Part shown: positions 6,164 through 50,909 of the stretch, one piece after another
How positions within the stretch are numbered: the first letter of the stretch is position 1
How the letters are laid out: each line of letters starts with the position of its first letter
Notes under the pieces: generated by a model
What the model saw: only the letters and a program-made list of their open reading frames with translations
Database searches by the model: none
Told to the model about the DNA's origin: nothing
Position numbers and translations under genes: made by a program
Source of the DNA: an uncultured Myxococcales bacterium
GTDB taxonomy: Bacteria; Myxococcota_A; UBA9042
NCBI GenBank assembly: GCA_903869075.1
Contig: CAIPXZ010000676.1
Span: 1-51,736 of the forward strand
Direction: 5' to 3'
DNA: 51,736 bases

Positions 6164-6961
6164 TCAGCGGCCGGTAAACTGCGGTGGTCGCTTGGCCAGC
6201 AGCGCGGCGACGCCCTCTTTGGCGTCGTCGGTTTCAACCGTCGCAGCTTGGGCAAAAGCCTCGCGCCACGCCGCAGTTCGCGCGTCCCAGCCCACGCCCT
6301 GGTAGATCGACTTCTTCATCATCCGCACCGCGATCGGCGCGTTCTGGGCGATCTCGTGGGCCAGGCGCATTGTTTCCGCCAGCACCTCAGTCGCTGGCAC
6401 CGCGCGCAGGAACAGCCCCAGATCGACGCCCTCCTGGCCAGAGAACAGCCGCCCGGTGAACAGCAGCTCGCAGGCGCGCGGCACGCCTACAAGCCGCGGC
6501 AGCAGGTAGCTGATCGCCATGCCGGCGTGCAGCCCGAGCTTGGCAAAATTGGCGCCGTACTTGGCGTCGGTGGCGACGATGCGGATGTCGCTCATCAGCG
6601 ACAGGCCAAAACCGCCGCCGACGGCATGGCCTTGCAGCGCACCCAGCACGGGCACCTCGACGTCGCCCAGCGACAGGAATGGCTCGTACATCGCCGCCGA
6701 CCGCTCCGGCGACGACAGGTGCGCGCCGTCCCGTTGGATTTGACTGCGAAAGTCCGCGCCGGCGCTGAAGCAGGCGCCGCTGCCCGTCACCACCACGCAG
6801 CGCACGTCCGCCAGCGCGCGCACGTCGCGCACGGCTTGGGCAAAAGCGTCCAGCAGCTCGGGCGTCATGCTGTTGCGGTTGTCCGGCCGGTTCAGCTGCA
6901 GGATCGCCACCGCGCCGTCCTGCCGCAGCAGCACCGCCGGTTCGTTGGGGCTCTGGGGCAT
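6164..6961 (-). CDS. Enoyl-CoA hydratase/isomerase (crotonase) family protein
   Basis: LNRPDNRNSM, CFSAGAD, GHAVGGGFGL and APIAVRMMKK motifs. Start placed at ATG 6961. Confidence 0.9.
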   Translation of the reverse strand: MPQSPNEPAVLLRQDGAVAILQLNRPDNRNSMTPELLDAFAQAVRDVRALADVRCVVVTGSGACFSAGADFRSQIQRDGAHLSSPERSAAMYEPFLSLGDVEVPVLGALQGHAVGGGFGLSLMSDIRIVATDAKYGANFAKLGLHAGMAISYLLPRLVGVPRACELLFTGRLFSGQEGVDLGLFLRAVPATEVLAETMRLAHEIAQNAPIAVRMMKKSIYQGVGWDARTAAWREAFAQAATVETDDAKEGVAALLAKRPPQFTGR

Positions 6962-10487: not shown

Positions 10488-11468
10488 TCAGCGCACTTGC
10501 AGGATGATTTTGCCAATGTGCGCGCCGGCCTCCAGCCGCGCATGCGCCGCCGCCGCGTCCGCCAGCGGAAACACAGCGTCGATGACCGGCACGACCGTCC
10601 GCGCCGCCAGCAGCGGCCACACGTGCGCCTGCAGCTGCGCGGCGATCGCCGCCTTGAACGCCGGTGGCCGCGACCGCAGCGCCGAGCCGGTGATGGTCAG
10701 CCGCCGCCGCAGCACCTCCATCGCCGGGATCGTCGCCTTGTTGCCGCCCAGCGTCGCGATGATCACCACCCGGCCGTCGTCGGCCAGGCACGCGATGTCG
10801 CGCTCCAGGTACGGCCCGGCGACCATGTCGAGGATCACGTCCACGCCGCGGCCGCCGGTCACGGCCTTGACCTCGGCGACAAAGTCCTCGGTGCGGTAAT
10901 CGATGGCCCGCTCGGCGCCCAGCGCCACGCACGCCGCGCACTTGGCTGCCGTGCCCGCCGTCACAACCACGCGGCTGCCCAGCGCCTTGGCCAGCTGGAT
11001 CGCCATGACGCCGATGCCGGAGCTGCCGCCGTGAACCAGCAGCCACTCGCCGGGCTGCAGCCGGCCGCGGTCAAAAACGTTGCTCCACACCGTGAACGCC
11101 GTCTCCGGCAGGCCCGCGGCTTCGACGAACGACAAGCCCGCCGGCACCGGCAGGCACTGGCCCGCGGGCACCACGCAGCTCTGGGCATAGCCACCGCCGG
11201 CCAGCAGCGCGCACACGGCGTCGCCCACCTGCCAGCGCGTCACGCCCGCGCCCAGCGCGTCGATGACGCCCGCGACCTCCAGACCCAGCACGTCCGTCAC
11301 GCCCGGCGGCGGCGGATACAGGCCCTTGCGCTGCAGCAGATCCGGGCGGTTCAGGCCGGCGGCGTGCACGGCAATGCGCACTTCACCCGCCGCGGGCACC
11401 GGCTGCGGCCGCTCGGCCAGCGCCAGCACCGACGGCTCACCCGGTTCACGCGCCACGATCGCCAACAT
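10488..11468 (-). CDS. NAD(P)H-quinone oxidoreductase, PIG3/zeta-crystallin (MDR) family
   Basis: AGLNRPDLLQRKGLYPPPPG, GLEVAG, HGGSSGIG and HIGKIIL. ATG 11468 preceded by GGAGG. Confidence 0.92.
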   Translation of the reverse strand: MLAIVAREPGEPSVLALAERPQPVPAAGEVRIAVHAAGLNRPDLLQRKGLYPPPPGVTDVLGLEVAGVIDALGAGVTRWQVGDAVCALLAGGGYAQSCVVPAGQCLPVPAGLSFVEAAGLPETAFTVWSNVFDRGRLQPGEWLLVHGGSSGIGVMAIQLAKALGSRVVVTAGTAAKCAACVALGAERAIDYRTEDFVAEVKAVTGGRGVDVILDMVAGPYLERDIACLADDGRVVIIATLGGNKATIPAMEVLRRRLTITGSALRSRPPAFKAAIAAQLQAHVWPLLAARTVVPVIDAVFPLADAAAAHARLEAGAHIGKIILQVR

Positions 11469-11580
11469 CCGCACCCCCTCCGCGTGCAAAATAGCACGTC
11501 TCGCGGCATTGCGGCGCGTGGGCTGCTTGTCGGCGGATTCTGCTACAGTGCGCGCGTCGCACCGTTGTCCCGGAGGCCGC

Positions 11581-12765
11581 ATGTCGCCCGTTGTTTTGCG
11601 CTGTTGTGCCGTCCTCGCCAGCGCGCTGGTTGCATGCAGCGACCGTCCGCCGCCGTCCGCCGCCGCGGCCGTGCCCGATGACGCGGTGGCCGACGCTTTC
11701 ACCGCCACGGATGCCGCTGACGTCGCGCTGCCGGACGTCGCCGTCACCGAGACCGCCGCCAGCGTCTGCACGCCGGGCGCCACGACCTGCGCCAGCGGCA
11801 CGACGCTGAAGACCTGCGCTGCGGACGGAGCCAGCTGGCTCGCCAGCGCTTGCGGCTACCAGACCATCTGCACCAACAACGCGTGCTTGCCGATCCTCTG
11901 CACGCCCGACGCAAGCAGCTGCGACGGCCCGGACAAGGTCCTGTGGTGCAACGACACGGGTACCGCGCTCCAGCAGACGGGCACGTGCGACCCGGCCAGC
12001 ACCGGGGTCTGCGTCGACGGCCACTGCGCGCCGATCGTCTGTAAGATCGGCGAGAAGACCTGCATGGACGCGGCGACTGTGGGCGTGTGCAAGGCAGACG
12101 GCACGGGCTTTGCCGGCCAGGCGTGCGATGACGGCGACGCCTGCACCATCGACGCCTGCGAACTCGCCGGCAGCTGCACCGCGACGGTCCTGAACTGCGA
12201 CGACGGCGATGCCTCAACCATCGACAGCTGCAACAAGGTCCAAGGCTGCGTGCATATTCAAAGCGGCTGCTGGTATGACAGCACCTGCGACGATCAGGAC
12301 GACTGCACGCTGGACACCTGCGTCGGCGCCACTGCCACCGTCCCGGGCACGTGCAAGCATGAGCAGACCTGCACCTGCAACGTGCTTCCCGCCATCGCCT
12401 GCGGCGCCAAGTTGTCCGGCGCGACCCAGTCGGGGGGCAGCTCCAAATTCCTCACCACGTGGGTTTGCCAGGACGGCACGGTCACTGGTGAGCTCGGCTA
12501 TGAGCACGTCCAGCAGTTCATCCCCGCCTGCACCGGCGCGATGACAGCCACGCTCACCGCCCCGCTCAGCCACCTCGACCTGTTCCTGCTCGACGGCACC
12601 AAGGACTGCTGGGACAACGCCTGCCTCGTCCACGCGCTGGGCACCACCGGGCAGGCAACGCTGACGGCCAACGTCACCGCCGGCACTGTCTACAACCTCG
12701 CCATCGACGGCAGCAGCTACACCGGCGGGACGTATACGCTGGACATCAGCTGTGGCTGTCCCTGA
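11581..12765 (+). CDS. Cysteine-rich repeat lipoprotein with C-terminal PPC-like beta domain
   Basis: Lipobox LVAC; three CxPG...CxxDG units; three CDDxDxCT(I/L)DxC repeats; C-terminal DLFLL...TVYNLAIDG...YTLDISC. GGAGG upstream of ATG. Confidence 0.8.
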   Translation: MSPVVLRCCAVLASALVACSDRPPPSAAAAVPDDAVADAFTATDAADVALPDVAVTETAASVCTPGATTCASGTTLKTCAADGASWLASACGYQTICTNNACLPILCTPDASSCDGPDKVLWCNDTGTALQQTGTCDPASTGVCVDGHCAPIVCKIGEKTCMDAATVGVCKADGTGFAGQACDDGDACTIDACELAGSCTATVLNCDDGDASTIDSCNKVQGCVHIQSGCWYDSTCDDQDDCTLDTCVGATATVPGTCKHEQTCTCNVLPAIACGAKLSGATQSGGSSKFLTTWVCQDGTVTGELGYEHVQQFIPACTGAMTATLTAPLSHLDLFLLDGTKDCWDNACLVHALGTTGQATLTANVTAGTVYNLAIDGSSYTGGTYTLDISCGCP

Positions 12766-12772
12766 GCGCCCA

Positions 12773-12959
12773 GCGCTATCCTCCCAAGCGCTGCGACGTG
12801 TCCACCCGACAGCCAGGACCTATCCAGGCGACACATCAGACCTATCGCTTGGATACCTCGGACCGCTCGATGCGACACCTTGGAGCTGTGCAGCCGACAG
12901 CATGTACCTATCCGGCGGATACCTGCGACCTGTGTGGGGGATAGCTTGCACCTGTCCAC
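12773..12959. repeat. Degenerate 22-bp tandem array of palindromic units (consensus GACCTRTC-N5-GAYAS-N4)
   Basis: Seven full units at 12795, 12817, 12839, 12861, 12883, 12905 and 12927: gacgtgtccacccgacagccag / gacctatccaggcgacacatca / gacctatcgcttggatacctcg / gaccgctcgatgcgacaccttg / gagctgtgcagccgacagcatg / tacctatccggcggatacctgc / gacctgtgtgggggatagcttg. A half unit (cacctgtccac) starts at 12949 and a decayed unit at 12773. Confidence 0.9.
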
Positions 12960-13415
12960 CTAAGGCTGGGCCGGGCCCTTGGTGCCGTGCGGCGCCGACT
13001 TGCCCATGAACTTGGTCAACGGCGCGAACATCGCCGCCAGCTCCGGGTGGTGCTTGACCTGGCCCTTGAGCATGTCATTCACCTGCCGCAGCTGGTCCCA
13101 GCACGCGGCATCGGCCAGCAGGTTCTCCTCCTGCACCATCCGCGTCACGACCTGCAGCGCCGTCAGCACGCCGTTCAGGCCGTCCGACCGCGCGCCCGCC
13201 GCCACAAGGCTCTTGGCCGTGATGCCCTGGGGCGGCGTGAAGGCGGTGCCGGCGTTGGTCAGCGCCGTCGCCGTCTCCTGCGCCGCGAGGCCAATGCCGG
13301 CGGGCGCCTTGGGCAGCCGCTTGATCGCGTCGGGCGTCAGCTTGCCGGCCTTGTCCGACAGCGCCAGGGTGTCATCGACGACGAGCGTCACGGGACCGTG
13401 GGTCATCTTTGCCAT
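12960..13415 (-). CDS. Uncharacterised 151-aa, probably alpha-helical protein
   Basis: ATG 13415 with strong SD AAGGAG and GC3-rich codons. No signal peptide. Sequence includes LTPDAIKRLPK...FTPPQG...EENLLADAACWDQLRQVNDMLK. Confidence 0.8.
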   Translation of the reverse strand: MAKMTHGPVTLVVDDTLALSDKAGKLTPDAIKRLPKAPAGIGLAAQETATALTNAGTAFTPPQGITAKSLVAAGARSDGLNGVLTALQVVTRMVQEENLLADAACWDQLRQVNDMLKGQVKHHPELAAMFAPLTKFMGKSAPHGTKGPAQP

Positions 13416-13635
13416 GGGATTCTCCTTGGGGAATGCGCGAAATCGCGTGGGCCAAGGATGAAAGGACCGGCGCGACAGCGTCAACGGCCGACTGTCATGG
13501 CCGTGTCAAACCGGGCGCGGCGGGGTTGTGTGACATTTTGCCGTGTGGCGCGGAAAAAGTTGGCGGGGAGCGAGAATCTGGTCCCACCCTCTTTGACGGG
13601 CGGGCTCTATCTGGCCGCCGCCGCCGTCCCAGCCG

Positions 13636-15687
13636 CTACTTCACCAGCGGATACGCCGGCTTGTCCTGGCCCTGCGTCAGCTTGACAAGGTAGTTCGCCC
13701 GCACGTTCGTCCACGTCTGGGTCGTCAGGCTGCCGTCTGGCCAGCGCACTTTCACCGCGTCGATGGCGCACGCCGCGCCCAGGCCAAAGTGCAGCGTCAA
13801 GTCGTTCTGCTGGCCAAAAAGCCCGTAGCCGCCGCCGACTTCTGCCATCTGCGTCACGCCGCCCGCGGTCACCCAGACGTGCGCGCCGATGGCGGAGGCG
13901 TTGCTGCCGCCGGTGCCGACCAACTGCAGCTGCACGTAGTTGCCCTGCGGCATGTTGTTCTGGAAGACGTGGACTTCCTCGGTCGGGTAGCACTCCGCCG
14001 GCGACAGGTTGCAGCGCATCGTGCTGCTGCCCAGCACCACGTCCAGGTCGCCATCGCGGTCAAAATCGGCGACGGCGGCGCCGTGCGCGTGCTTGTGGTC
14101 GATGCCGAGGTCGATCGGCACCTCCTCGAACGTGCCGTCCGGAAGCTGGTGGTAAATCAGCGCGTGGGTGCCGGGGTAATCCGACGAGGCGATCAGCACG
14201 TCCAGCCGGCCATCGTTGTCAAAGTCGAACACCGCGCCCGCCATGTCGCCGACGTCGTTCTGCTGGTCCAGCGGCCGCAAGCCGTTGTCGGCGGCGTGCA
14301 GCGTCGTGAACTGCGGGATATCGTTGGTCATGCCGTCATTGCGGACGATGCGCGTCGGGTCCGACGACGTGCCGACGTCCGGGTGGACGATCGTGCCCTG
14401 CAGCAGGTCCAGGTCGCCGTCGTTGTCGATGTCGGCGCAGGTCAACAGCCCGGTGTTGCCGCCCAGGCGGTACGGCTTGCGGTCGGTCGGGTGGTTCCAG
14501 CGGTACGTGCCGCCAAACGCCGCCTTGAGCTGCACGCAGTCGACCTGCGGCGGTCCGCACTTGTCGCACTCGTCGGCGGTCGGGTTGTCGTGGCAATAGC
14601 ACTGCGCGTTCCAGTTCGTGGTCCAGTCGTCGTCGTCGTCGCGGTCGAGGTGCGACTCGTGCATCTGCTGGACAAAGCGCGTGCTGCCGTCGCCCTTGAA
14701 GCCGCCGCGCCAGAAGGTGTTGAAATCGCGGCCATAGCTCGCGGTCAGCAGGTCCGGCTCACCGTCGTTGTCGACGTCGCACGCCGCGGTGCACCAGGTG
14801 TGATGCGGCGCCGAGCCATCCTCCACGTGCGCCTGCGTGTAGGTCGTCGTCACAACGCCTTCCGCCGCCGAGACAGCCAGGAAGTTGCCGGCGCCGTCGC
14901 CCTGCACGAGCTGGTCGGGGATCGGCACGCCCGCGGCGCCCCAGGTCATGTAGCCCAGCCAGAGGTCCAGCTTGCCGTCGCGGTCATAATCGGTGAATGA
15001 CGCCGCGCCGAGCGAGCGCCGCAAGTCCTTGGTGGCAAACGAGGCAGTCGTCGGCAGCGCGAAGTGCCCGGTGCCGTCGTTCAGCATCAGCTCGGAGCTG
15101 TCCTGCTTGAAGTTGTCCTTTGTCTGGTCGGTCAACATGCTGTCGCCGCAGAACATGTCGACGTCGCCGTCGTTGTCCACGTCGCCAAACACGACGATCT
15201 GCATCTGCCGGCCATCGGCGCCGTCGCGCGTGGTGGTCAAGCCCGACGCCTTGGTGACGTCGCTGAACTGCATGCCCTTGGTAGTTGTCACGTTTTTCAG
15301 CAGCCAGATCGCCCGCTTGCCCGGCGTCCAGTCCTCGCGCTTGCCTTGGCCGGACGAGCTGCGGACGCTCAGGTCCGGCAGCGCGTCGCCGTTGATGTCG
15401 GCGGTGGAGATGCTGACGCCGGTGACCCGGGTGACGTCGACGGAGAATGCCAGCGGCGTGACGTCGGCGAAGGCCTTTTGGTTGCTCCAGACGGTGCCGG
15501 TGCGGCAAATCGCCGGCGGCGCGCCCTGGAACGGATCGGTGGCGTCGGCGTCATCGCTGTCGGCAAGCGTGCTGGCGGCGTCGGTGGCGGCCTGGCTGTC
15601 CGCAGTGTTGCTTGTGCTGGTGGCGGCCTGACCGCAGGCCGTCAGGCTGAGCAAAAGGCCGGCGAGCTGGCAGATCGGAGTACGCAT
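13636..15687 (-). CDS. CRTAC1-family lipoprotein (FG-GAP/VCBS repeats plus ASPIC/UnbV domain)
   Basis: Lipobox LTAC, multiple DxDxDGxxD repeats, and C-terminal SNASAIGAHV...LHFGLG...VRWPDG. Confidence 0.9.
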   Translation of the reverse strand: MRTPICQLAGLLLSLTACGQAATSTSNTADSQAATDAASTLADSDDADATDPFQGAPPAICRTGTVWSNQKAFADVTPLAFSVDVTRVTGVSISTADINGDALPDLSVRSSSGQGKREDWTPGKRAIWLLKNVTTTKGMQFSDVTKASGLTTTRDGADGRQMQIVVFGDVDNDGDVDMFCGDSMLTDQTKDNFKQDSSELMLNDGTGHFALPTTASFATKDLRRSLGAASFTDYDRDGKLDLWLGYMTWGAAGVPIPDQLVQGDGAGNFLAVSAAEGVVTTTYTQAHVEDGSAPHHTWCTAACDVDNDGEPDLLTASYGRDFNTFWRGGFKGDGSTRFVQQMHESHLDRDDDDDWTTNWNAQCYCHDNPTADECDKCGPPQVDCVQLKAAFGGTYRWNHPTDRKPYRLGGNTGLLTCADIDNDGDLDLLQGTIVHPDVGTSSDPTRIVRNDGMTNDIPQFTTLHAADNGLRPLDQQNDVGDMAGAVFDFDNDGRLDVLIASSDYPGTHALIYHQLPDGTFEEVPIDLGIDHKHAHGAAVADFDRDGDLDVVLGSSTMRCNLSPAECYPTEEVHVFQNNMPQGNYVQLQLVGTGGSNASAIGAHVWVTAGGVTQMAEVGGGYGLFGQQNDLTLHFGLGAACAIDAVKVRWPDGSLTTQTWTNVRANYLVKLTQGQDKPAYPLVK

Positions 15688-15691
15688 TGCG

Positions 15692-16420
15692 TTAATCCTT
15701 CAAGGAAAAGGGCGTAAAGGTTGTGTCGGTATCGAAGAAATCTTCATTTTCAGCGCGTTTCAAGAAACCCACCACTGCGTAGGTCACGGGCGTCATCACG
15801 ACCTCGACGGCGACCTTGAACGCCCACGCCGAGGCGATGACCGCCAGCAGGTTGGAAGTCGGCCACAGCGCCGCGAAGGCAATCGGATAAAACAGCGCAC
15901 TATCCACGCCTTGGCCGACGATCGTCGAGCCGATCGTGCGCGTCCACAGCCACTTGCCCTGCGTGCGCAGCTTCATCTTGGCCAGCACCAGGCTGTTGGC
16001 AAAATCACCGGCCCAAAAGGCGATCATGGACGCCAGGACGATGCGCGGCGTATTGCCAAACACCGTCTCCAAACCCGGCTGAATCACTGCGTTATACGGC
16101 ACTTCCGGGTCGACGGGCAGGTGGATGACGACCCAGCTCATCAGCGTCATGAACGCCATCGCGCCAAAGCCCGCCCAGATGACCTTGCGGGCGCGGGCGT
16201 AGCCGTAGACCTCGGTCAGCACGTCGCCGAACACGTAGGAAACCGGGAAGAAAATGTTGCCGGCGCCGAATGGCACCTTGAAGCCGGCGATGGTCACGAA
16301 CGACGCCTTGCCGGGGCCGATCATGTTGGAACACAGCAAAACCGTGACGAAACCGGCGAGGATCAGGTCGTAGTACCGGTAGTGGCGGCCGCGGACGGGG
16401 TGGCTGGGCGCTGGGTGCAT
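15692..16420 (-). CDS. yhhQ: Queuosine precursor transporter (YhhQ/VUT, DUF165 family)
   Basis: FFPVSYVFGDVLTEVYGY, PRIVLASMIAF and LWTRTIGSTIVGQGVDSALF motifs; multiple TM helices. Confidence 0.85.
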   Translation of the reverse strand: MHPAPSHPVRGRHYRYYDLILAGFVTVLLCSNMIGPGKASFVTIAGFKVPFGAGNIFFPVSYVFGDVLTEVYGYARARKVIWAGFGAMAFMTLMSWVVIHLPVDPEVPYNAVIQPGLETVFGNTPRIVLASMIAFWAGDFANSLVLAKMKLRTQGKWLWTRTIGSTIVGQGVDSALFYPIAFAALWPTSNLLAVIASAWAFKVAVEVVMTPVTYAVVGFLKRAENEDFFDTDTTFTPFSLKD

Positions 16421-16562
16421 CGGCAAGTCTCCGGATCGCTGGACCCGCATGGTGCCGCATGTCGGCCAGCGCGACAAACGGCCGCCCGGCAGGCGCGCGT
16501 TGCGACGGCAGTTTCCTTGGCGTAGCATGGCCGCGCGCAGCCTTGCGCAACCGTCGTCCGCG

Positions 16563-16952
16563 ATGTCACAAGCCAAACGCCCGCGTATTTTGGTGATTGA
16601 CGATGAGCCGCTCATCGGCTGCCTGATCGTTCGCGTGCTGGGCCGCGGCTACGACGTCGCGACGGTTGTGCATGGCCAGCAAGGCCTGGACGTGCTGGCG
16701 GCGGATGACAAGTTCGACCTCGTGCTGTGCGACCTGATGATGCCGGGGCTGACCGGCATGGACGTGCACGCAGCGCTGGCGCAGCGCGGTTCGCGTCAAG
16801 CGGCGACGATGATCTTCCTGACCGGCGGCGCGTTCGTTGGCCACGCCGGCGAATTCCTGGCGCGCGTGCCCAATCCGTGTCTTGAAAAGCCGTTTCTTGC
16901 CGAAGAGTTGCGCGCCGCGGTCCACAACGCACTGGCGTCGCCGTCGCGCTAG
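16563..16952 (+). CDS. Single-domain response regulator (receiver)
   Basis: ILVIDDE, DLVLCDLMMPGLTG (phospho-Asp), FLTGG and LEKPF. Confidence 0.9.
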   Translation: MSQAKRPRILVIDDEPLIGCLIVRVLGRGYDVATVVHGQQGLDVLAADDKFDLVLCDLMMPGLTGMDVHAALAQRGSRQAATMIFLTGGAFVGHAGEFLARVPNPCLEKPFLAEELRAAVHNALASPSR

Positions 16953-18509
16953 CTACTTGCCCAGCGCCGTCTCGATCGCCTGAATCGCCGCCTGCACGGC
17001 TGGATCGGTCTGCACAAGCCAGTCGATCTTTTGGCATGCGTGAATCGCCGTCGAGTGATCGCGGCCGCCAAACGCGCGGCCAATCTCCGGAAACGACGCC
17101 TGCGTGTGCTTGCGCGTCAGCCACACTGCGACCATGCGCGGCACCACGACGCCGCGGTGGCGCTTGGCGCCCTTCAAATCGGTGACGCGCAGGCCATAGT
17201 GCTGCGCCGTGACGCGCTGGATGACCTCGACCGTCAGGTGCCGCGACGGCAGCTCGATGATCGGCCCCAGCGCCGCGCGCGCCAGCGCCAGGTCGATCGG
17301 CCGCTTGCCCAGCCGCGCGTGGGCGTAGAGCTTGTGCAGCGCGCCTTCCAACTCACGGACATTGTTGCGCAAATGATCGGAAAGGTAGTAGATGACGTCC
17401 AGTGGCACGTGCTGGTTCTGCGCTTCGCCCGCGGTCTCGCCCGGCTGCTTGCCGGTGCCGGGCGTCTGCTGCGCATGCTGGGCGGCGCGCTGGCGCAGGA
17501 TCGCCACGCGCAGGTCGCGATCCGGCGGCGAGATCCCGGCGGTCAAGCCGTTCTCAAAGCGCGATCGCAGGCGCTCGTGGAAGTCGTGCAGCTCGGACGG
17601 AAAGCGATCGCAGGTCAGCACGATCTGCTTGCCAGCCAGGTACAGCGCGTTGAAAGTATGGAAGAATTCTTCCTGCGTCGCCGTCTTGCCCTGCAGAAAC
17701 TGCACGTCGTCCAGCAGCAGCACGTCCACGTTGCGGTAGAACGCGCGGACGTCGACGCGCACCGAGGCGTCGCGCGAGCGCATGGCGGCGATCGTGTCGT
17801 CGGCAAAAGTCTCCGCCGGCACGTAGCGCACGCGCAGGTGCGGGTGGCGCGCCGTGATCGCGTTGCCGATCGCGTGCAGCAAGTGGGTTTTGCCCAAGCC
17901 GACGCCGCCGTAGAGAAACACCGGATTGACGGTCTCGCCGGGATGCTCGGCGACGGTGCGCGCCGCTGACAGCGCGAGCTGGTTGGACTCGCCCTCGACG
18001 AAGTTGCCGAACGTGAAGCGCGGCACCAGCGAACTGCTTGTCTCCAGCGAGTTGGCGACGTCCAGCGTGTCCGCCGGCGCGGCGTTGGCAAAGCGCGGAT
18101 CGGCGGCAAACAGCGGATCGGTGGCGTACGTCGCCTGCACGGCGAGGTGCGCGGCGGCAGGCGGCGGCTCCAGCTCCAGCGCCTGGCTGTCGTCGGCAAC
18201 GCGCAGCTCAATCGGCGGCTGACCCAGACCATTGGCCTCGATCGCCCGGCGCAGCGGCGCAAGGTGCTGCTGGGCGATGACGTCGCGGAAGTGCTCATCG
18301 GGCACTTCCAGGATGAAGCCGTCGGGACCGGCGGCGTGGGCGATCACCTTGTCAAACCAGGCATCGACGACGGAGCGGCGGGTGATGGTGCGCAGCTGGC
18401 TCAGCGTTTGCTGCCAAATCACGCGCACTTCCAGCGCATCCGCCGCCACAGCGCTGCCATCGCGCAGCGGCGCGGCAGTCTCAGTCGGTTGGGGCGTCGT
18501 CGGCGGCAT
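16953..18509 (-). CDS. dnaA: Chromosomal replication initiator protein DnaA
   Basis: FTFGNFVEGESN, NPVFLYGGVGLGKTHLLHAIGN, LLLDDVQF, QEEFFHTFN, RLRSRF, NVRELEGA and domain IV GGRDHSTAIHA. Start set at ATG 18509. Confidence 0.97.
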   Translation of the reverse strand: MPPTTPQPTETAAPLRDGSAVAADALEVRVIWQQTLSQLRTITRRSVVDAWFDKVIAHAAGPDGFILEVPDEHFRDVIAQQHLAPLRRAIEANGLGQPPIELRVADDSQALELEPPPAAAHLAVQATYATDPLFAADPRFANAAPADTLDVANSLETSSSLVPRFTFGNFVEGESNQLALSAARTVAEHPGETVNPVFLYGGVGLGKTHLLHAIGNAITARHPHLRVRYVPAETFADDTIAAMRSRDASVRVDVRAFYRNVDVLLLDDVQFLQGKTATQEEFFHTFNALYLAGKQIVLTCDRFPSELHDFHERLRSRFENGLTAGISPPDRDLRVAILRQRAAQHAQQTPGTGKQPGETAGEAQNQHVPLDVIYYLSDHLRNNVRELEGALHKLYAHARLGKRPIDLALARAALGPIIELPSRHLTVEVIQRVTAQHYGLRVTDLKGAKRHRGVVVPRMVAVWLTRKHTQASFPEIGRAFGGRDHSTAIHACQKIDWLVQTDPAVQAAIQAIETALGK

Positions 18510-19119
18510 GGTGCTTCGGCAGGTGAGAGGGTCGTTGCGGATGCCCCGCCAATACGCCCGCCGGCCCTGGGGCGCGGTCGACGTCGGGTTGGGGGCTGAC
18601 GGACGCGATAGGTATCGCGCCGCCCGCGGGCCGACAAGGGGAGAGCGCAAGATTGCCCGTCGGCGGCCGGTCATTCATCTCCAAGGTCATGACAATACAG
18701 GGTAAGTTGCATCCGGTTGACATTTCACAGAGTCAGCCGTTGACACTTCCAGCCGCAGCAAGGGAGGTAACCCCCTGATGCGCGGCACAATTGCCGGCTT
18801 GTTTGCTAACCCTATGAAAACAAAATGTTTTGCCAGAACCATTGAATATCAGCAACTTGTCGCAGAGTTGTTGCAGTGGCGTCGCCGCGCGATCGCTGAC
18901 CGACCGGTCACCCGCCGCGCGGATCGATCGGCGCATCGGCCGACCGGCGGGCGGACGCGACAAGGGACTCGCATTTTCCGCAACTTGGTGTAAACTGCCG
19001 CGCCCGCTGCTTGTGCAGACGTGCGCGAAATGACGGTTCCGTGGGTGTCTCCCAGAGCGCGCACAAGCCCCATCCGCCACGGCACCCGCCGCGACAACCC
19101 CTGAACCGAGGAACGTATC
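18510..19119. other. dnaA-rpmH divergent intergenic region, candidate oriC
   Basis: About 610 bp non-coding with an AT-rich tract near 18800-18860. Gene orientation switches here. Only mismatched DnaA boxes were seen, e.g. TTTTCCGCA at 18974-18982. Confidence 0.5.
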
Positions 19120-19266
19120 GTGAAGAAAGGTCTTGGTAATCCCAGCAAAATCTCCCGCCTCCGCACCCACGGCTTTCGCGCCCGCATGGCCACCAAGAAC
19201 GGCCGCGCTGTGCTCAACCGCCGCCGCGCCAAAGGTCGCCTGCGCATGACGGTCTCCACGAAGTGA
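19120..19266 (+). CDS. rpmH: 50S ribosomal protein L34 (absent from the ORF track, 48 aa)
   Basis: Manual translation from GTG 19120: [54 protein letters not shown]; lies before rnpA. Confidence 0.97.
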
Positions 19267-19679
19267 TCGCGTCGCCGCCGTCTGCCGCGCCGCACATTCC
19301 GGGACCGCCGGGCGTCCTGCCTGACCCCCGTGGGTTGTTGCGTCGTCGCAGTCGGCTGCAGCACAAGTCCGCGTTTGACTTGGTGTTTCAGCGCGGCCGG
19401 CGTGCCCAGGGCCGCCACTTGAGCCTGATCGCGTGCCTGCAGCGCGGCCCGGATGTCCAGCCGCGCATCGGCCTCGCAGTGGCCAAGGCCGTCGGTCACG
19501 CCCCCGCGCGCGCCCGGTTGCGGCGGCTGACGCGGGAAGCGTTTCGGGCCCTGCGGCCCGGCCTGCAGCGGCCGTTTGATCTGGTGGTCAGCGCCCGCCA
19601 GCCTTGGCCGGATGCGCAACTGCGCGATGTTGTTGAGGAATTGCTGTTCCTCAGCCAGAAACTGCGCCTGCTCGGCTGA
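19263..19679 (+). CDS. rnpA: Ribonuclease P protein component
   Basis: [26 protein letters not shown] and [14 protein letters not shown] (RNR-like motif). GTGA overlap with rpmH. Confidence 0.92.
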
Positions 19680-19694
19680 ACGGAGCCAGCTACT

Positions 19695-20042
19695 TTGACG
19701 ACCGCGCCCTTTTCGCCACCGCTTGTCTCGCGCGTCGGTCGCTTGGACTACTGGCTGGCGTTGCCGTTGCTCGCGCTGATTCGCCTGTACCAGCGCACGT
19801 TGTCGCGGATCCTGCCGCCGGCGTGCCGCTTTACGCCCAGCTGTTCGCACTACGCCGCCACGGCGCTGCAGCAGCACAGCCTGCCGCGCGCGCTGGGTTT
19901 GACAACGTGGCGCCTGATGCGCTGCCAGCCGTTCTGCCGCGGCGGCCACGATCCGGTGCCGCCGGGTGCTTGGCACGGCCGCTGGCCGGTTACGCCACGC
20001 CACGATCTCTCCACCAGTTCGCCCAGTGAGACCTCCCAATGA
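19695..20042 (+). CDS. yidD: Membrane protein insertion efficiency factor YidD
   Basis: LIRLYQRTLS, CRFTPSCSHYA and RCQPFCRGGHDPVP; synteny. Confidence 0.95.
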   Translation: MTTAPFSPPLVSRVGRLDYWLALPLLALIRLYQRTLSRILPPACRFTPSCSHYAATALQQHSLPRALGLTTWRLMRCQPFCRGGHDPVPPGAWHGRWPVTPRHDLSTSSPSETSQ

Positions 20043-21859
20043 CGGCCATTCGAACCAGTTTCCTGATGCTCTGTGCAGTGTTGGCGATCCTGCCGGCAAA
20101 ATCGGCGCTTGCCGATCTGCCCGCCGCCGTCACGCCGACCGCCGCCGCAGTGACCAAGCCTGCCGGTCCGTGCCGGCCGGGTACGCCGGGCGCGACGCTG
20201 AACAGCGGCGATGCGCTGTGGACCGTGTCGCCGTGCTCCGGCGCGCTGCAGGCGGTGCACCTGTCCAGCCCGCAGTTCCACATCCGCGCGCGCGGTGAGC
20301 CCGCGGGCCTGCCGGCGTGGGCCAAGTCCAAGTATTCGGAAGGTCAGCTGGATTTGGTGCCGACGTGGGACGCGCCCTGGGACCCGTTCCAGGACACGAT
20401 TGTGCAGGCGCTCGTCGCCGGCCAGACGTCCGTGAAGATCCAGCGGCGCGAAGGCGGCGCGACGACGACGCAGACGGTGCCGAGCCTGCAGGCGCTGCAA
20501 AAAGCCGAGCCGCAGTGGACCGTGCTGCGCGCGGACGCGGCGCAAGTCACGATGATCTGGCCGGATCCGCGGCAGATCCAGGCGCCGCTGTACTTGGTCA
20601 AGACCTGGAAGCCGGCGGGCAAGACCGCCGCGGGCGTCGCGCAGCCGCTGTCCCTGGACGTGGAGCTGGCGGTGTGGAACGTCAGCGGCCAGGCCGTGCA
20701 GCTGACGCTGCAGCAGCAGGTGAGCAGCTTCCAGGACCCGAACGCCGGCTCGGGCGGCATGTTGGCGATGTTCTCGGCGCCGCCGGACAACAAAGGCGCG
20801 GGCTTTTGGCAGGCCGGCGCGCTCGTGCACCAGGACCTCGCCGGGCTGTCCAAGGCGGATCTGGCGGATCGCCAGCGCACCGGCAAACCCGAGTGGTTTG
20901 GCGTGGATTCCCGCTACTTTTTGCTGGCGGCGATCCCGCTGGACGGCTACGACGCCAAGTCGACAGTGACGCTGGTGCCGCGCGGCACCGGCGGCGTGCA
21001 GGCGCAGCTCGTGACCAGCGCGACGACAATCCCCGCGGCGACGTGCATGCCCAGCTGGTACCAGGTGAACTGGGGCGGCGTGGCGTGCGGCAATGACAAC
21101 GGCGCGGGTAAGAGCTGGAAATACTTGACCTATGCCGGTCCCAAGCAGCTGGACATGCTCAAGGAAATGGACCATGAGCTTGTGGGCAGCGTCGACTTTG
21201 GCTGGTTCACCGTCATCGCCAAGCCGATGCTGCTTGTGCTGCGCTGGGCCCACGACATCACCGGGCTGTGGCCGCTGGCGATCCTGATCCTGACGCTGCT
21301 GGTCAAGGTGTTGCTGTGGCCGGTGACGTCCAAGTCGATGAAATCGATGAAGAAAATGCAGCAGCTCAAGCCGGAACTGGACAAGGTCCGCGCCGAGCTG
21401 GAAGCGCGCGCCAAGAAGCTGGGTCAGGACAAGCCGGACCCGCAGGAGCTGAACCGCGCGACTTTTGATCTGTACAAAAAGCACGACGTCAACCCGCTGG
21501 GTGGCTGCTTGCCGATGCTGCTGCAGATGCCGGTGTACATCGCGCTGTACCGAACCATCAATAGTTCCGTGGAGTTGTTCAACCAGCCGCTGTTTGGCTG
21601 GGTGACCGATCTGACGGCCAAGGACCCGTACTACGTGCTGCCGCTGGTGCTGGGCGGCGTGATGTTTGCCCAGCAAAAGCTGACGCCGCAGGCCGGCGGT
21701 GACCCGGCGCAGCAGAAGATGATGCTGTATTTCATGCCGATTTTGTTCACGGCCATGATGCTGCAGCTGCCGTCCGGCCTGACCCTGTACATTTTGGCCA
21801 ACACCGTGTTGAGTGTGCTGCAGACGGTGTACGTCAACCGCTCTGCCAAAGCCGCCTGA
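20039..21859 (+). CDS. yidC: Membrane protein insertase YidC
   Basis: YAGPK, VDFGWF, SMKKMQQLKPE, NPLGGCLPMLLQMPV, DPYYVLP and PSGLTLY; synteny. Confidence 0.97.
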   Translation: MTAIRTSFLMLCAVLAILPAKSALADLPAAVTPTAAAVTKPAGPCRPGTPGATLNSGDALWTVSPCSGALQAVHLSSPQFHIRARGEPAGLPAWAKSKYSEGQLDLVPTWDAPWDPFQDTIVQALVAGQTSVKIQRREGGATTTQTVPSLQALQKAEPQWTVLRADAAQVTMIWPDPRQIQAPLYLVKTWKPAGKTAAGVAQPLSLDVELAVWNVSGQAVQLTLQQQVSSFQDPNAGSGGMLAMFSAPPDNKGAGFWQAGALVHQDLAGLSKADLADRQRTGKPEWFGVDSRYFLLAAIPLDGYDAKSTVTLVPRGTGGVQAQLVTSATTIPAATCMPSWYQVNWGGVACGNDNGAGKSWKYLTYAGPKQLDMLKEMDHELVGSVDFGWFTVIAKPMLLVLRWAHDITGLWPLAILILTLLVKVLLWPVTSKSMKSMKKMQQLKPELDKVRAELEARAKKLGQDKPDPQELNRATFDLYKKHDVNPLGGCLPMLLQMPVYIALYRTINSSVELFNQPLFGWVTDLTAKDPYYVLPLVLGGVMFAQQKLTPQAGGDPAQQKMMLYFMPILFTAMMLQLPSGLTLYILANTVLSVLQTVYVNRSAKAA

Positions 21860-50185: not shown

Positions 50186-50909
50186 ATGCAGATGCGCAGC
50201 CAGTTTCTCGTTCGTTCGCTTCTCGCCAGCGCCTGCGCGCTTGGTATCGCCGCGTGCGGCTCCAACACGGCACTGGGCGGCAGTGGCGGCCACGGGCGCC
50301 GATGCGCTGGACAATGACGGCGCGCTCAGCGGTTCCGACGCGACCGCGGGTGATGGCACGACCGCCGGGGACACCGCCGGGGCGGATGCTGCCGGCACCG
50401 ATGATGCGGCGGCCGATGTGGCGCCGGATGTGGCGACGGACACCGGACCGTCCATCGACAACCTGCCGTGCCCGTCGGGTCAGACCTACAAGGGCGGCTC
50501 CAGCAATGACATGGAGCCCGGCAACACCTGCATCCAGTGCCACTCGCAGGGCGAAGGCCCCACCTACACGCTCGCCGGCACCGTGTTTCGCAACCTGATC
50601 ACCAAGACCGGCTGCTACGCCAGCGGCACCGCCAGCAGCGTGGTACCGCCCGCCAGCTACACCGTGCAGATCACGGACGCCAACGGCAAAGTGTTCAAGG
50701 CGACGACGTCGACCCTGTCCGGCAACTTCCACTTCAGCGGCAAGTCCGTCTCTGGCTTTACGCCGCCGTACAGCGCCGAGGTGCAAGATAGCGCTGGCAA
50801 TGTCCGCAAGATGGCCACCAAGCAGACCAACGGCGACTGCAACAGCTGCCACACCGCGGTGGGCGCCAATGGCGCGCCGGGCCGCATCGTCGCGCCGTCG
50901 ACGCCCTGA
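50186..50909 (+). pseudogene. Diheme c-type cytochrome lipoprotein interrupted by a +1 frameshift near 50291 (true lesion or sequence error)
   Basis: ATG 50186 (GGAG SD) encodes MQMRSQFLVRSLLASACALGIAAC-GSN and stops at 50317. The next frame carries CIQCH and CNSCH. Removing one base in ggcggccacg joins them. Confidence 0.75.

Follow-up and report, generated by a model that had tools for sequence, protein, structure and literature searches.

The results presented here indicated that a 151-amino-acid (aa) orphan protein gene and an adjoining array of 22-bp repeats were inherited together as one unit. Homologues of the gene tended to lie beside helically phased arrays, each array that was tested had a sequence of its own, the protein matched no known family, and it was predicted to form a homodimer. 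From these observations we infer an explanation that has a real chance of being right and that we hold tentatively: a dimer of the protein would coat its own array, with one dimer per two helical turns. The binding, the stoichiometry, and the function all belong to that proposal. The features of the locus, which lies in the 51,736-nucleotide stretch that was analyzed (the window), were as follows.

11263-12765, plus strand: convergent neighbor, a Cys-rich protein with Dicty_CTDC repeats; outside the module, and synteny between module and neighbor was absent in the congener G001
12771-12792, no strand given: decayed terminal unit, with CTATC still in phase in the 22-column layout
12793-12968, no strand given: eight phased 22-bp units, from the column layout and autocorrelation
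12960-13415, minus strand: 151-aa orphan protein gene, with ATG at 13415 and TAG at 12962-12960, from the open reading frame (ORF) and the Shine-Dalgarno sequence
13416-13508, minus strand: leader upstream of the gene, conserved and containing AAGGAG and a TTGACA hexamer, from homology with the congener at 12796-13508
13636-15687, minus strand: upstream neighbor, an FG-GAP/ASPIC protein; outside the module, and the start of synteny with five congeners

In the 22-column layout, plus-strand units began at positions 12793, 12815, 12837, 12859, 12881, 12903, 12925, and 12947. Each had the anatomy GACCTRTC-N5-GAYAS-N4, and there were zero indels between units; the consensus in the sense of the gene was AGGTRTC-N4/5-GGAYAGGTC-N2. 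The autocorrelation of positions 12793-12962 was 0.58, 0.56, and 0.60 at lags of 22, 44, and 66, respectively, and about 0.25 elsewhere. In a second test, of positions 12793-12968, the lag-22 score was 0.56, a value that none of 2,000 shuffles attained at lags between 5 and 49. Tandem Repeats Finder, at a score of 30, returned no row for the 22-bp array because the units were too diverged. Since the convergent ORF ended at 12765, the array occupied the entire intergenic gap. These results agreed with an initial annotation of this DNA, which had described the gap between the convergent genes as filled at an exact 22-bp period without indels and had listed seven 5-nucleotide (nt) spacers that matched the sequence exactly. 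The annotation had also placed the start of the array at the TAG of the 151-aa gene; the TAG indeed lay inside the first unit in gene sense, which overlapped the stop codon and the last two codons. Its description of the half-sites STRTC and GAYAS as reverse complements was correct in part: TRTC and GAYA were paired as inverted half-sites, but the inverted portion was only 4 bp and was flanked by noncomplementary GG.

When the units from the genome of the window (G000) were combined with those of G001, 17 units aligned without gaps. Columns 1 to 7 and 12 to 20 were conserved and columns 8 to 11 and 21 to 22 were free; T6 and T19 were invariant, and A14 was present in at least 90% of the units. 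The two conserved blocks were about 11 bp apart within the 22-bp unit, and the 17 units held their register with zero indels, though a third of the positions had changed. In the DNA contigs of four sequencing runs, no length variant of the array was seen, and the only contig to bridge it was probably the source itself; this result was uninformative with respect to expression and copy-number variation.

The sequence AAGGAG was located 7 nt upstream of the ATG at 13415, in line with the strong Shine-Dalgarno sequence noted in the initial annotation, and homologues of the protein aligned from the same Met. A TTGACA hexamer, which was a consensus match only, was found on the minus strand at 13504-13509, 94 nt before the start; position 13508 was also the upstream limit of homology with G001.

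The window covered the region of the chromosomal origin, with dnaA at 16956-18674 (minus strand), rnpA at 19263-19676, and yidC at 20039-21856, and the minimum of the cumulative GC skew was located at about 12 to 15 kb of the window, at the array, which is separated from dnaA by about 4 kb. This closeness was not conserved: in G093, a complete genome, dnaA was at 6.77 Mb and the modules were at 1.09 to 1.46 Mb and 8.02 Mb, and the modules of G001 and G029 were on contigs other than that of dnaA. Linkage to the origin was rejected, as the array was near dnaA in G000 only. We also rejected a reading of the units as DnaA boxes: by eye, TGTCCACC was found only in the two end units, and the box was not covered by the conserved columns.

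To examine whether the protein and the array formed a unit, we collected homologues via whole-genome searches (relatives, class, phylum, and one other order), a word-indexed protein search, an exhaustive profile search, and two collection scans. The exhaustive profile search yielded 164 representative clusters at E ≤ 1e-3 and 123 at 1e-10. After duplicates were dropped (L046-L049, which were the G029 loci; L058, a G093 locus; and L059, a G018 locus) and the partial gene L033 was set aside, 27 distinct loci were available. A uniform detector (88-bp window, best lag of 7 to 69, and threshold of 0.58) was applied to all of them, and an array was counted if it was located no more than 500 bp from the gene.

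Arrays with a fundamental period of 21, 22, 65, or 66 bp were found at 16 of the 27 loci. Nine were downstream, at or near the stop codon (the window, G001, both G029 loci, G093a, G093b, G403a, L050, and L060), and seven were upstream (G018, G093c, G093d, G093e, L051 from Byssovorax cruenta, L054, and L056). Thus, the idea of a protein-plus-array unit was supported by the homologues, and the expected downstream location held for 9 of the 16 arrays; the other 7 were located upstream of the gene. Three more loci (L044, L045, and L052) had decayed arrays directly 3' of the stop codon, whose lag-22 scores were reached by 17, 67, and 1 of 2,000 shuffles, respectively; with these included, 19 of the 27 loci had an array. 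The remaining eight had none (G003, G287, L042, L043 [with no more than about 160 bp of flanking sequence], L053, L055, L057, and L061), indicating that the protein can persist without an array. The number of units per array ranged from about 6 to 17; the upstream array of L051, from B. cruenta JCM 12614, had about 14. A homologue was also present in a Polyangium sp. In the case of L054 and L056, the 66-bp arrays consisted of three different 22-bp subunits beside one gene.

In G093, all five paralogues of the family had an adjoining 21- or 22-bp array. The background was low. Across the 6.27 Mb of the window's own genome, the same detector found three arrays with a period of 22 (this array, a weak one on contig C467, and one on contig C442), and an evenly spaced 400-kb sample of G093 contained one. 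The locus counts overstate independence because the loci are phylogenetically related, and no formal P value was assigned to the linkage for the same reason; nevertheless, chance was not tenable as an explanation of the linkage between gene and array.

Unit sequences differed among loci and among paralogues, and the five paralogues in G093 had five different units. A genome-wide motif scan showed that the window motif clustered nowhere else in its own genome. Similarly, the two G093 units that were tested were found only in their own arrays, save for one stray site with 2 mismatches. The motif cluster of the window was thus confined to its own locus and the two tested G093 units were locus private, which is not the pattern of REP/BIME-type dispersal; the possibility that the array was a dispersed repeat unlinked to the gene, raised at the outset, could be set aside.

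The private units were nevertheless related. Specifically, 15 of 153 pairs in sense orientation shared at least 15 of 22 positions, and 7 did so in antisense orientation (null 99th percentile, 14). The units of G000 and G001 shared 18 of 22 positions, the paralogues L017 and L018 shared 16, and G000 and L054 shared 16. L050 and L051 had 17 of 22 positions in common, with the former array downstream and the latter upstream of its gene. Because related genes had recognizably related arrays, gene and array diverged together, and the array diverged faster. Among homologues with 61 to 77% identity, L044 and L045 had different motifs and L042 had no array; such motif changes among close homologues demand either fast coevolution of specificity or low specificity. 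Dyad symmetry of the whole unit was significant in some arrays only.

We then compared the locus with its relatives. In a comparison of 17 kb of the window with 16 kb of G001, the sole homology was at 12796-13508 (73% over 731 bp). The stretch common to G000 and G001 consisted of the array, the gene, and the 93-bp leader, and the two proteins were 70% identical. The region from 13634 to 17045 (the FG-GAP gene and rightward) was syntenic in five congeners in which the module was absent, and three of the five were without the protein family. Synteny with the five congeners stopped exactly at 13634, the stop of the FG-GAP gene, which places the module at a rearrangement breakpoint; four congeners had in common a further 1.5-kb flank that was missing from the G000 assembly. 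The family was patchy: it was present in 11 of 401 sampled genomes of the phylum and in 1 of 18 genomes of the order of G093, the five copies in G093 notwithstanding. Mobile and defense genes were in excess among the neighbors (IS91-type, Mutator, IS481, and DDE transposases, BrxL/PglZ, Uma2, MmeI, a type ISP methylase, HepT, and HNH), and the locus neighborhoods otherwise had nothing in common. Repeats of about 125 bp that resembled IS91 ends flanked the G093 copies.

The module loci were chromosomal, including loci on a 9.29-Mb chromosome, and no match to the family was found in viral contigs, 72,556 plasmid records, or phages. Most homologues are known from short metagenomic contigs; 9 of 10 family clusters that were looked up (among P0010-P0080) were found only on contigs of about 0.9 to 8.4 kb, which are likely to be short because repeats broke the assemblies. 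Proteins with 100% and 91% identity to those of the G029 loci (L046-L049) occurred in Myxococcales and Chloroflexota metagenome-assembled genome (MAG) records of one series, and the arrangement of the G018 locus (L059) recurred in a record titled uncultured Enterobacteriaceae. These cross-phylum records were likely to be binning or labeling artifacts.

Other tandem arrays were also observed in these genomes. The surroundings of the five G093 copies (L020-L024) were rich in arrays with periods of 26 bp (1.2 kb long), 21, 27, 39, 42, and 45 bp (for example, L023:5184-6397, 6397-6667, and 10498-10697), and IS91-family transposases with repeated ends of about 125 bp were also present. About 19 tandem arrays in G000 had a period of 41, 42, or 43 bp, or about four helical turns (for example, C708:978-1232, C596:1777-2069, C237:801-1068, C658:446-667, C352:1114-1388, C50:6-240, C721:1469-1733, and C432:8985-9205). 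They mostly lacked a coding-like GC3 contrast, C721 and C432 shared units, and the flanks of the arrays of about 42 bp contained neither a recurrent small gene nor a remote homologue of the 151-aa family. At C442:2776-2900 of G000, four 22-bp direct repeats (GGTGATCGGCTTGSTCCGANA) were located directly upstream of an ORF that we take to be an IS21/IstA-like transposase, a name based on the N-terminal motif of the protein. The C442 repeats look like IS21-type multiple terminal repeats that are unrelated to the module.

Members of the protein family were about 140 to 160 aa long and carried the pattern L(T/S)P..E..RLPKA, which fitted the suggestion in the initial annotation of an uncharacterized family with an LT(P/A)xE/DxxxLPK-like pattern. 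No family match was found in Pfam, NCBIfam, PHROG, or PADLOC. A comparison of 66 members with Pfam at E ≤ 10 gave no recurrent family and no ribbon-helix-helix (RHH) family, and the best E value in a PDB sequence profile search was 0.18. The matching clusters in the ESM Atlas were all named hypothetical, and by this lead the range of the family possibly extends beyond the Myxococcota. The long hits P0121 and P0126 were rejected as fusions, as they were low-complexity or coiled-coil matches.

The AlphaFold2 model of the monomer, based on 14 sequences, had a pLDDT of 84.8 and a predicted fold with an unstructured N terminus, short helices, a helix at residues 41 to 58, and a long helix at residues 67 to 119. 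Foldseek found nothing at E ≤ 0.001 in the PDB or BFVD, and the best matches in a wide structural search (Z of 5.9) were generic helical hairpins. In homodimer prediction, the ipSAE was 0.82 versus 0.00 for the best control, with about 310 contacts and a partner pLDDT of 89, and the prediction runs agreed in at least 91% of contacts. In calibration, 20 of 30 homodimers and 1 of 23 monomers with solved structures attained the mark that was used, counts that are only rough because our own alignment was used for prediction. Residues 6 to 14 were part of the predicted interface, as were antiparallel contacts, for example 73/105 and 80/98. Thus, the modeling supports, and does not prove, a helical hairpin that forms a symmetric intertwined dimer.

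No DNA-binding domain was detectable in the family by sequence or fold. The family was not basic (median pI of 6.4 and median net charge of -1), and its only conserved basic feature was a short R/K patch at residues 33, 36, 38, and 39. A conserved N-terminal motif, G-x-V-T-V-x-I-P-D-x-L, was located within the predicted dimer interface, and we take it to resemble the strand of RHH proteins. No RHH match was found by Pfam in the 66 members or among the fold matches of the monomer model, and the N-terminal strand was ordered in the dimer only. The RHH resemblance is a lead only.

An array that begins at a stop codon might act as RNA, that is, as mini-hairpins or protein-binding repeats in a 3' untranslated region or 5' leader. 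Such repeats would control how stable the mRNA is or how it is translated, or they would act as a sponge for an RNA-binding protein, which might be the one encoded here. The nine strong and three decayed downstream arrays started at the stop codon or within about 100 bp of it, and no intrinsic terminator was found in the gap between the convergent genes, so these arrays would be cotranscribed; in addition, many units had short inverted repeats with a 5-nt gap. However, on neither strand did the array show more folding than its dinucleotide shuffles (z of +0.91 in gene sense and -0.72 in antisense), and the stem was only 4 bp. The R and Y positions of the half-sites varied independently: for the 5-pair hairpin in the 17 units of G000 and G001, the covariation score was reached by 427 of 500 shuffles and the paired fraction by 467 of 500. 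Seven arrays were upstream of the gene, and three of them (G093c, G093d, and G093e) ended 34 to 274 bp before the best TTGACA hexamer, a consensus match only, and were thus clearly upstream of the putative promoter. The best Rfam 15 matches over positions 12000-14000 had 17 to 23 bits, versus gathering scores of 50 to 78, and a period of 21 to 22 fits the DNA helix and follows no RNA rule. The mini-hairpin alternative offered in the initial annotation was therefore not supported, and we consider an RNA role quite improbable. The null folding and covariation results, the upstream arrays, the 21- to 22-bp period, and the register without indels together favor a role as double-stranded DNA with selection on helical phase, as judged from sequence.

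If the array does act as DNA, its user need not be the adjacent protein. It could be used by a nucleoid factor of the host, block the polymerase, or act as curved DNA, or it could be a largely neutral, hitchhiking minisatellite. The protein's lack of a nucleic acid-binding signature would fit these ideas, as would the near-identical units of the G093 and G029 arrays, which look like recent slippage expansions, the many further tandem arrays in these genomes, and the eight loci that kept the gene without an array. Yet a host factor predicts a common motif, which the five different units of the G093 paralogues do not have, and a neutral minisatellite would neither hold a 21- to 22-bp period across proteins that are only 25 to 40% identical nor stay free of indels with column-specific conservation while its spacers drift; moreover, period-22 arrays were rare elsewhere. 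We regard this group of explanations as unlikely. The array might instead belong to a small nonautonomous mobile element, as its end or as a site of recombination, with stacked sites for a transposase or recombinase encoded elsewhere, with the gene as cargo or an accessory. This idea draws on the different contexts of the module in congeners and its position at a synteny break, its patchy spread, the transposase- and defense-rich neighborhoods, the IS91-end-like repeats around the G093 copies, and the C442 array, the other 22-bp array of G000, which looks like the terminal repeat set of the IS21-like transposase. On the other side, each module had a single array and no second end, no transposase was beside the G000 or G001 copy, and a nonexhaustive search found no target duplications or inverted ends at the homology limits. 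An enzyme acting in trans would also need common sites, and the arrays were private; we give this idea little credence. Indeed, the private arrays of the five G093 paralogues were the strongest argument against any shared trans-acting factor.

The explanation that we favor, coating of the array by the adjacent protein, would run as follows. The 151-aa gene, a short promoter region, and the 22-bp array would together make up a single module that is complete in itself, moves horizontally, and is about 715 bp long. The protein would form a long, intertwined dimer with two-fold symmetry, the core of which would be two antiparallel helices of about 50 residues each, and dimers would bind the neighboring array as double-stranded DNA, one per 22-bp unit. 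With two contact blocks about 11 bp apart, all dimers would be placed on one face of the helix and would form a continuous nucleoprotein coat. The dimer might act as a ruler that would fix the period while the sequence drifts. We infer a match in length between helix and unit, as long helices of about 48 to 53 residues would span 72 to 80 Å (1.5 Å per residue) and 22 bp about 75 Å; these values come from secondary-structure ranges and not from a distance measured in the model. Each paralogue would have its private array, like cognate protein/iteron or protein/centromere pairs. The position of many arrays directly at the stop codon would be convenient for a cis-acting protein that binds the DNA closest to its gene, and a comparable cis route to the neighboring origin has been proposed for RepA of plasmid R1. 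Candidate purposes of the coat include autoregulation, a transcriptional roadblock or insulator between convergent or divergent neighboring genes, and an anchoring or centromere-like site.

A bolder reading, which is possible but which we rather doubt, is that these loci represent an undescribed class of minimal module. An orphan "ruler" protein and its private, helically phased array would move among the Myxococcota, and possibly other phyla, would duplicate into orthogonal pairs, and would form a filament without a motor, replicase, or nuclease, serving as a stand-alone chromosomal "address tag" or insulator. No description of the family or the array was found in the literature searched, which was covered at the level of abstracts. 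If coating does occur, the protein would represent a new fold that binds DNA in a sequence-addressed manner, and the module would provide natural orthogonal protein/array pairs, five of them in one genome, that could be useful as insulators or as tethering or labeling tags. It would also uncover a hidden side of the biology of chromosomes or mobile elements in myxobacteria. Whatever the mechanism, the adjoining array is now a testable partner for an orphan family that comprises at least 164 sequence clusters.

Among known systems, CRISPR and TIGR-Tas loci also combine an adjacent gene with an alternation of conserved and variable blocks. CRISPR repeats are about 23 to 55 bp long with unique spacers of similar length, and TIGR units are about 36 nt long and carry two guide spacers, with a Tas protein that has a Nop domain. 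In contrast, the whole unit of the module is 22 bp with only 5 + 4 variable bases, which is too short for guides, and many module arrays, such as those of G093, had identical "spacers." No cas or Nop-domain gene was found by Pfam in 34 of the 36 called window ORFs (the other two were 11859-12236 and 50660-50887) and the Dicty_CTDC ORF or among 54 neighbor ORFs of other loci. The short units, the many identical spacers, and the absence of these genes among the scanned ORFs upheld the earlier conclusion that the array is neither CRISPR nor TIGR. Indeed, the module matched no known system in any membership test that gave a clear outcome, except in having phased repeats beside a gene.

The closest parallels were found among DNA-binding proteins with repeated sites. 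Operator arrays of RHH proteins include the 21-bp operators of Arc/Mnt, the operators of CopG, and the heptads of omega. The module is similar in its symmetric dimers (here predicted), subsites about 11 bp apart, and a conserved N-terminal strand-like motif in the interface, but in the monomer model the helices after the strand were off the RHH pattern. In the case of replication iterons, the gamma origin of R6K has seven 22-bp iterons, and every replicon has iterons of its own sequence. As with iterons, direct repeats of about 17 to 22 bp in phase beside a gene were present in the module, with tandem repeats at a 22-bp period next to the gene of the presumed binding protein. The 151-aa, all-helical predicted protein is, however, half the size of a Rep initiator and had no Rep family match; neither an AT-rich unwinding element nor a DnaA-box set was seen in the module, and it was present in five copies on one chromosome without residing on an autonomous replicon.

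Plasmid centromeres of types II and Ib include the 11-bp iterons of R1 parC and the 20-bp repeats of pSK41. The module resembles ParR-parC in having a small dimeric protein (here predicted) whose gene adjoins tandem repeats in phase, binding sites that would share one helix face, and putative cognate private pairs. It resembles ParB of pCXC100 in that both proteins are without a sequence-detectable DNA-binding motif, as reported for ParB (PMC3074162). Unlike partition cassettes, the module had no ParA, ParM, or TubZ NTPase among the neighbors scanned, and, unlike ParR-parC, it was chromosomal rather than on known plasmids or phages, its array often abutted the 3' end of the gene, and the predicted monomer fold of its protein gave no RHH match. 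By analogy, the module would work most like the small centromere- and iteron-binding proteins that act on phased arrays, as in ParR-parC, Rep-iteron pairs, and RHH operators.
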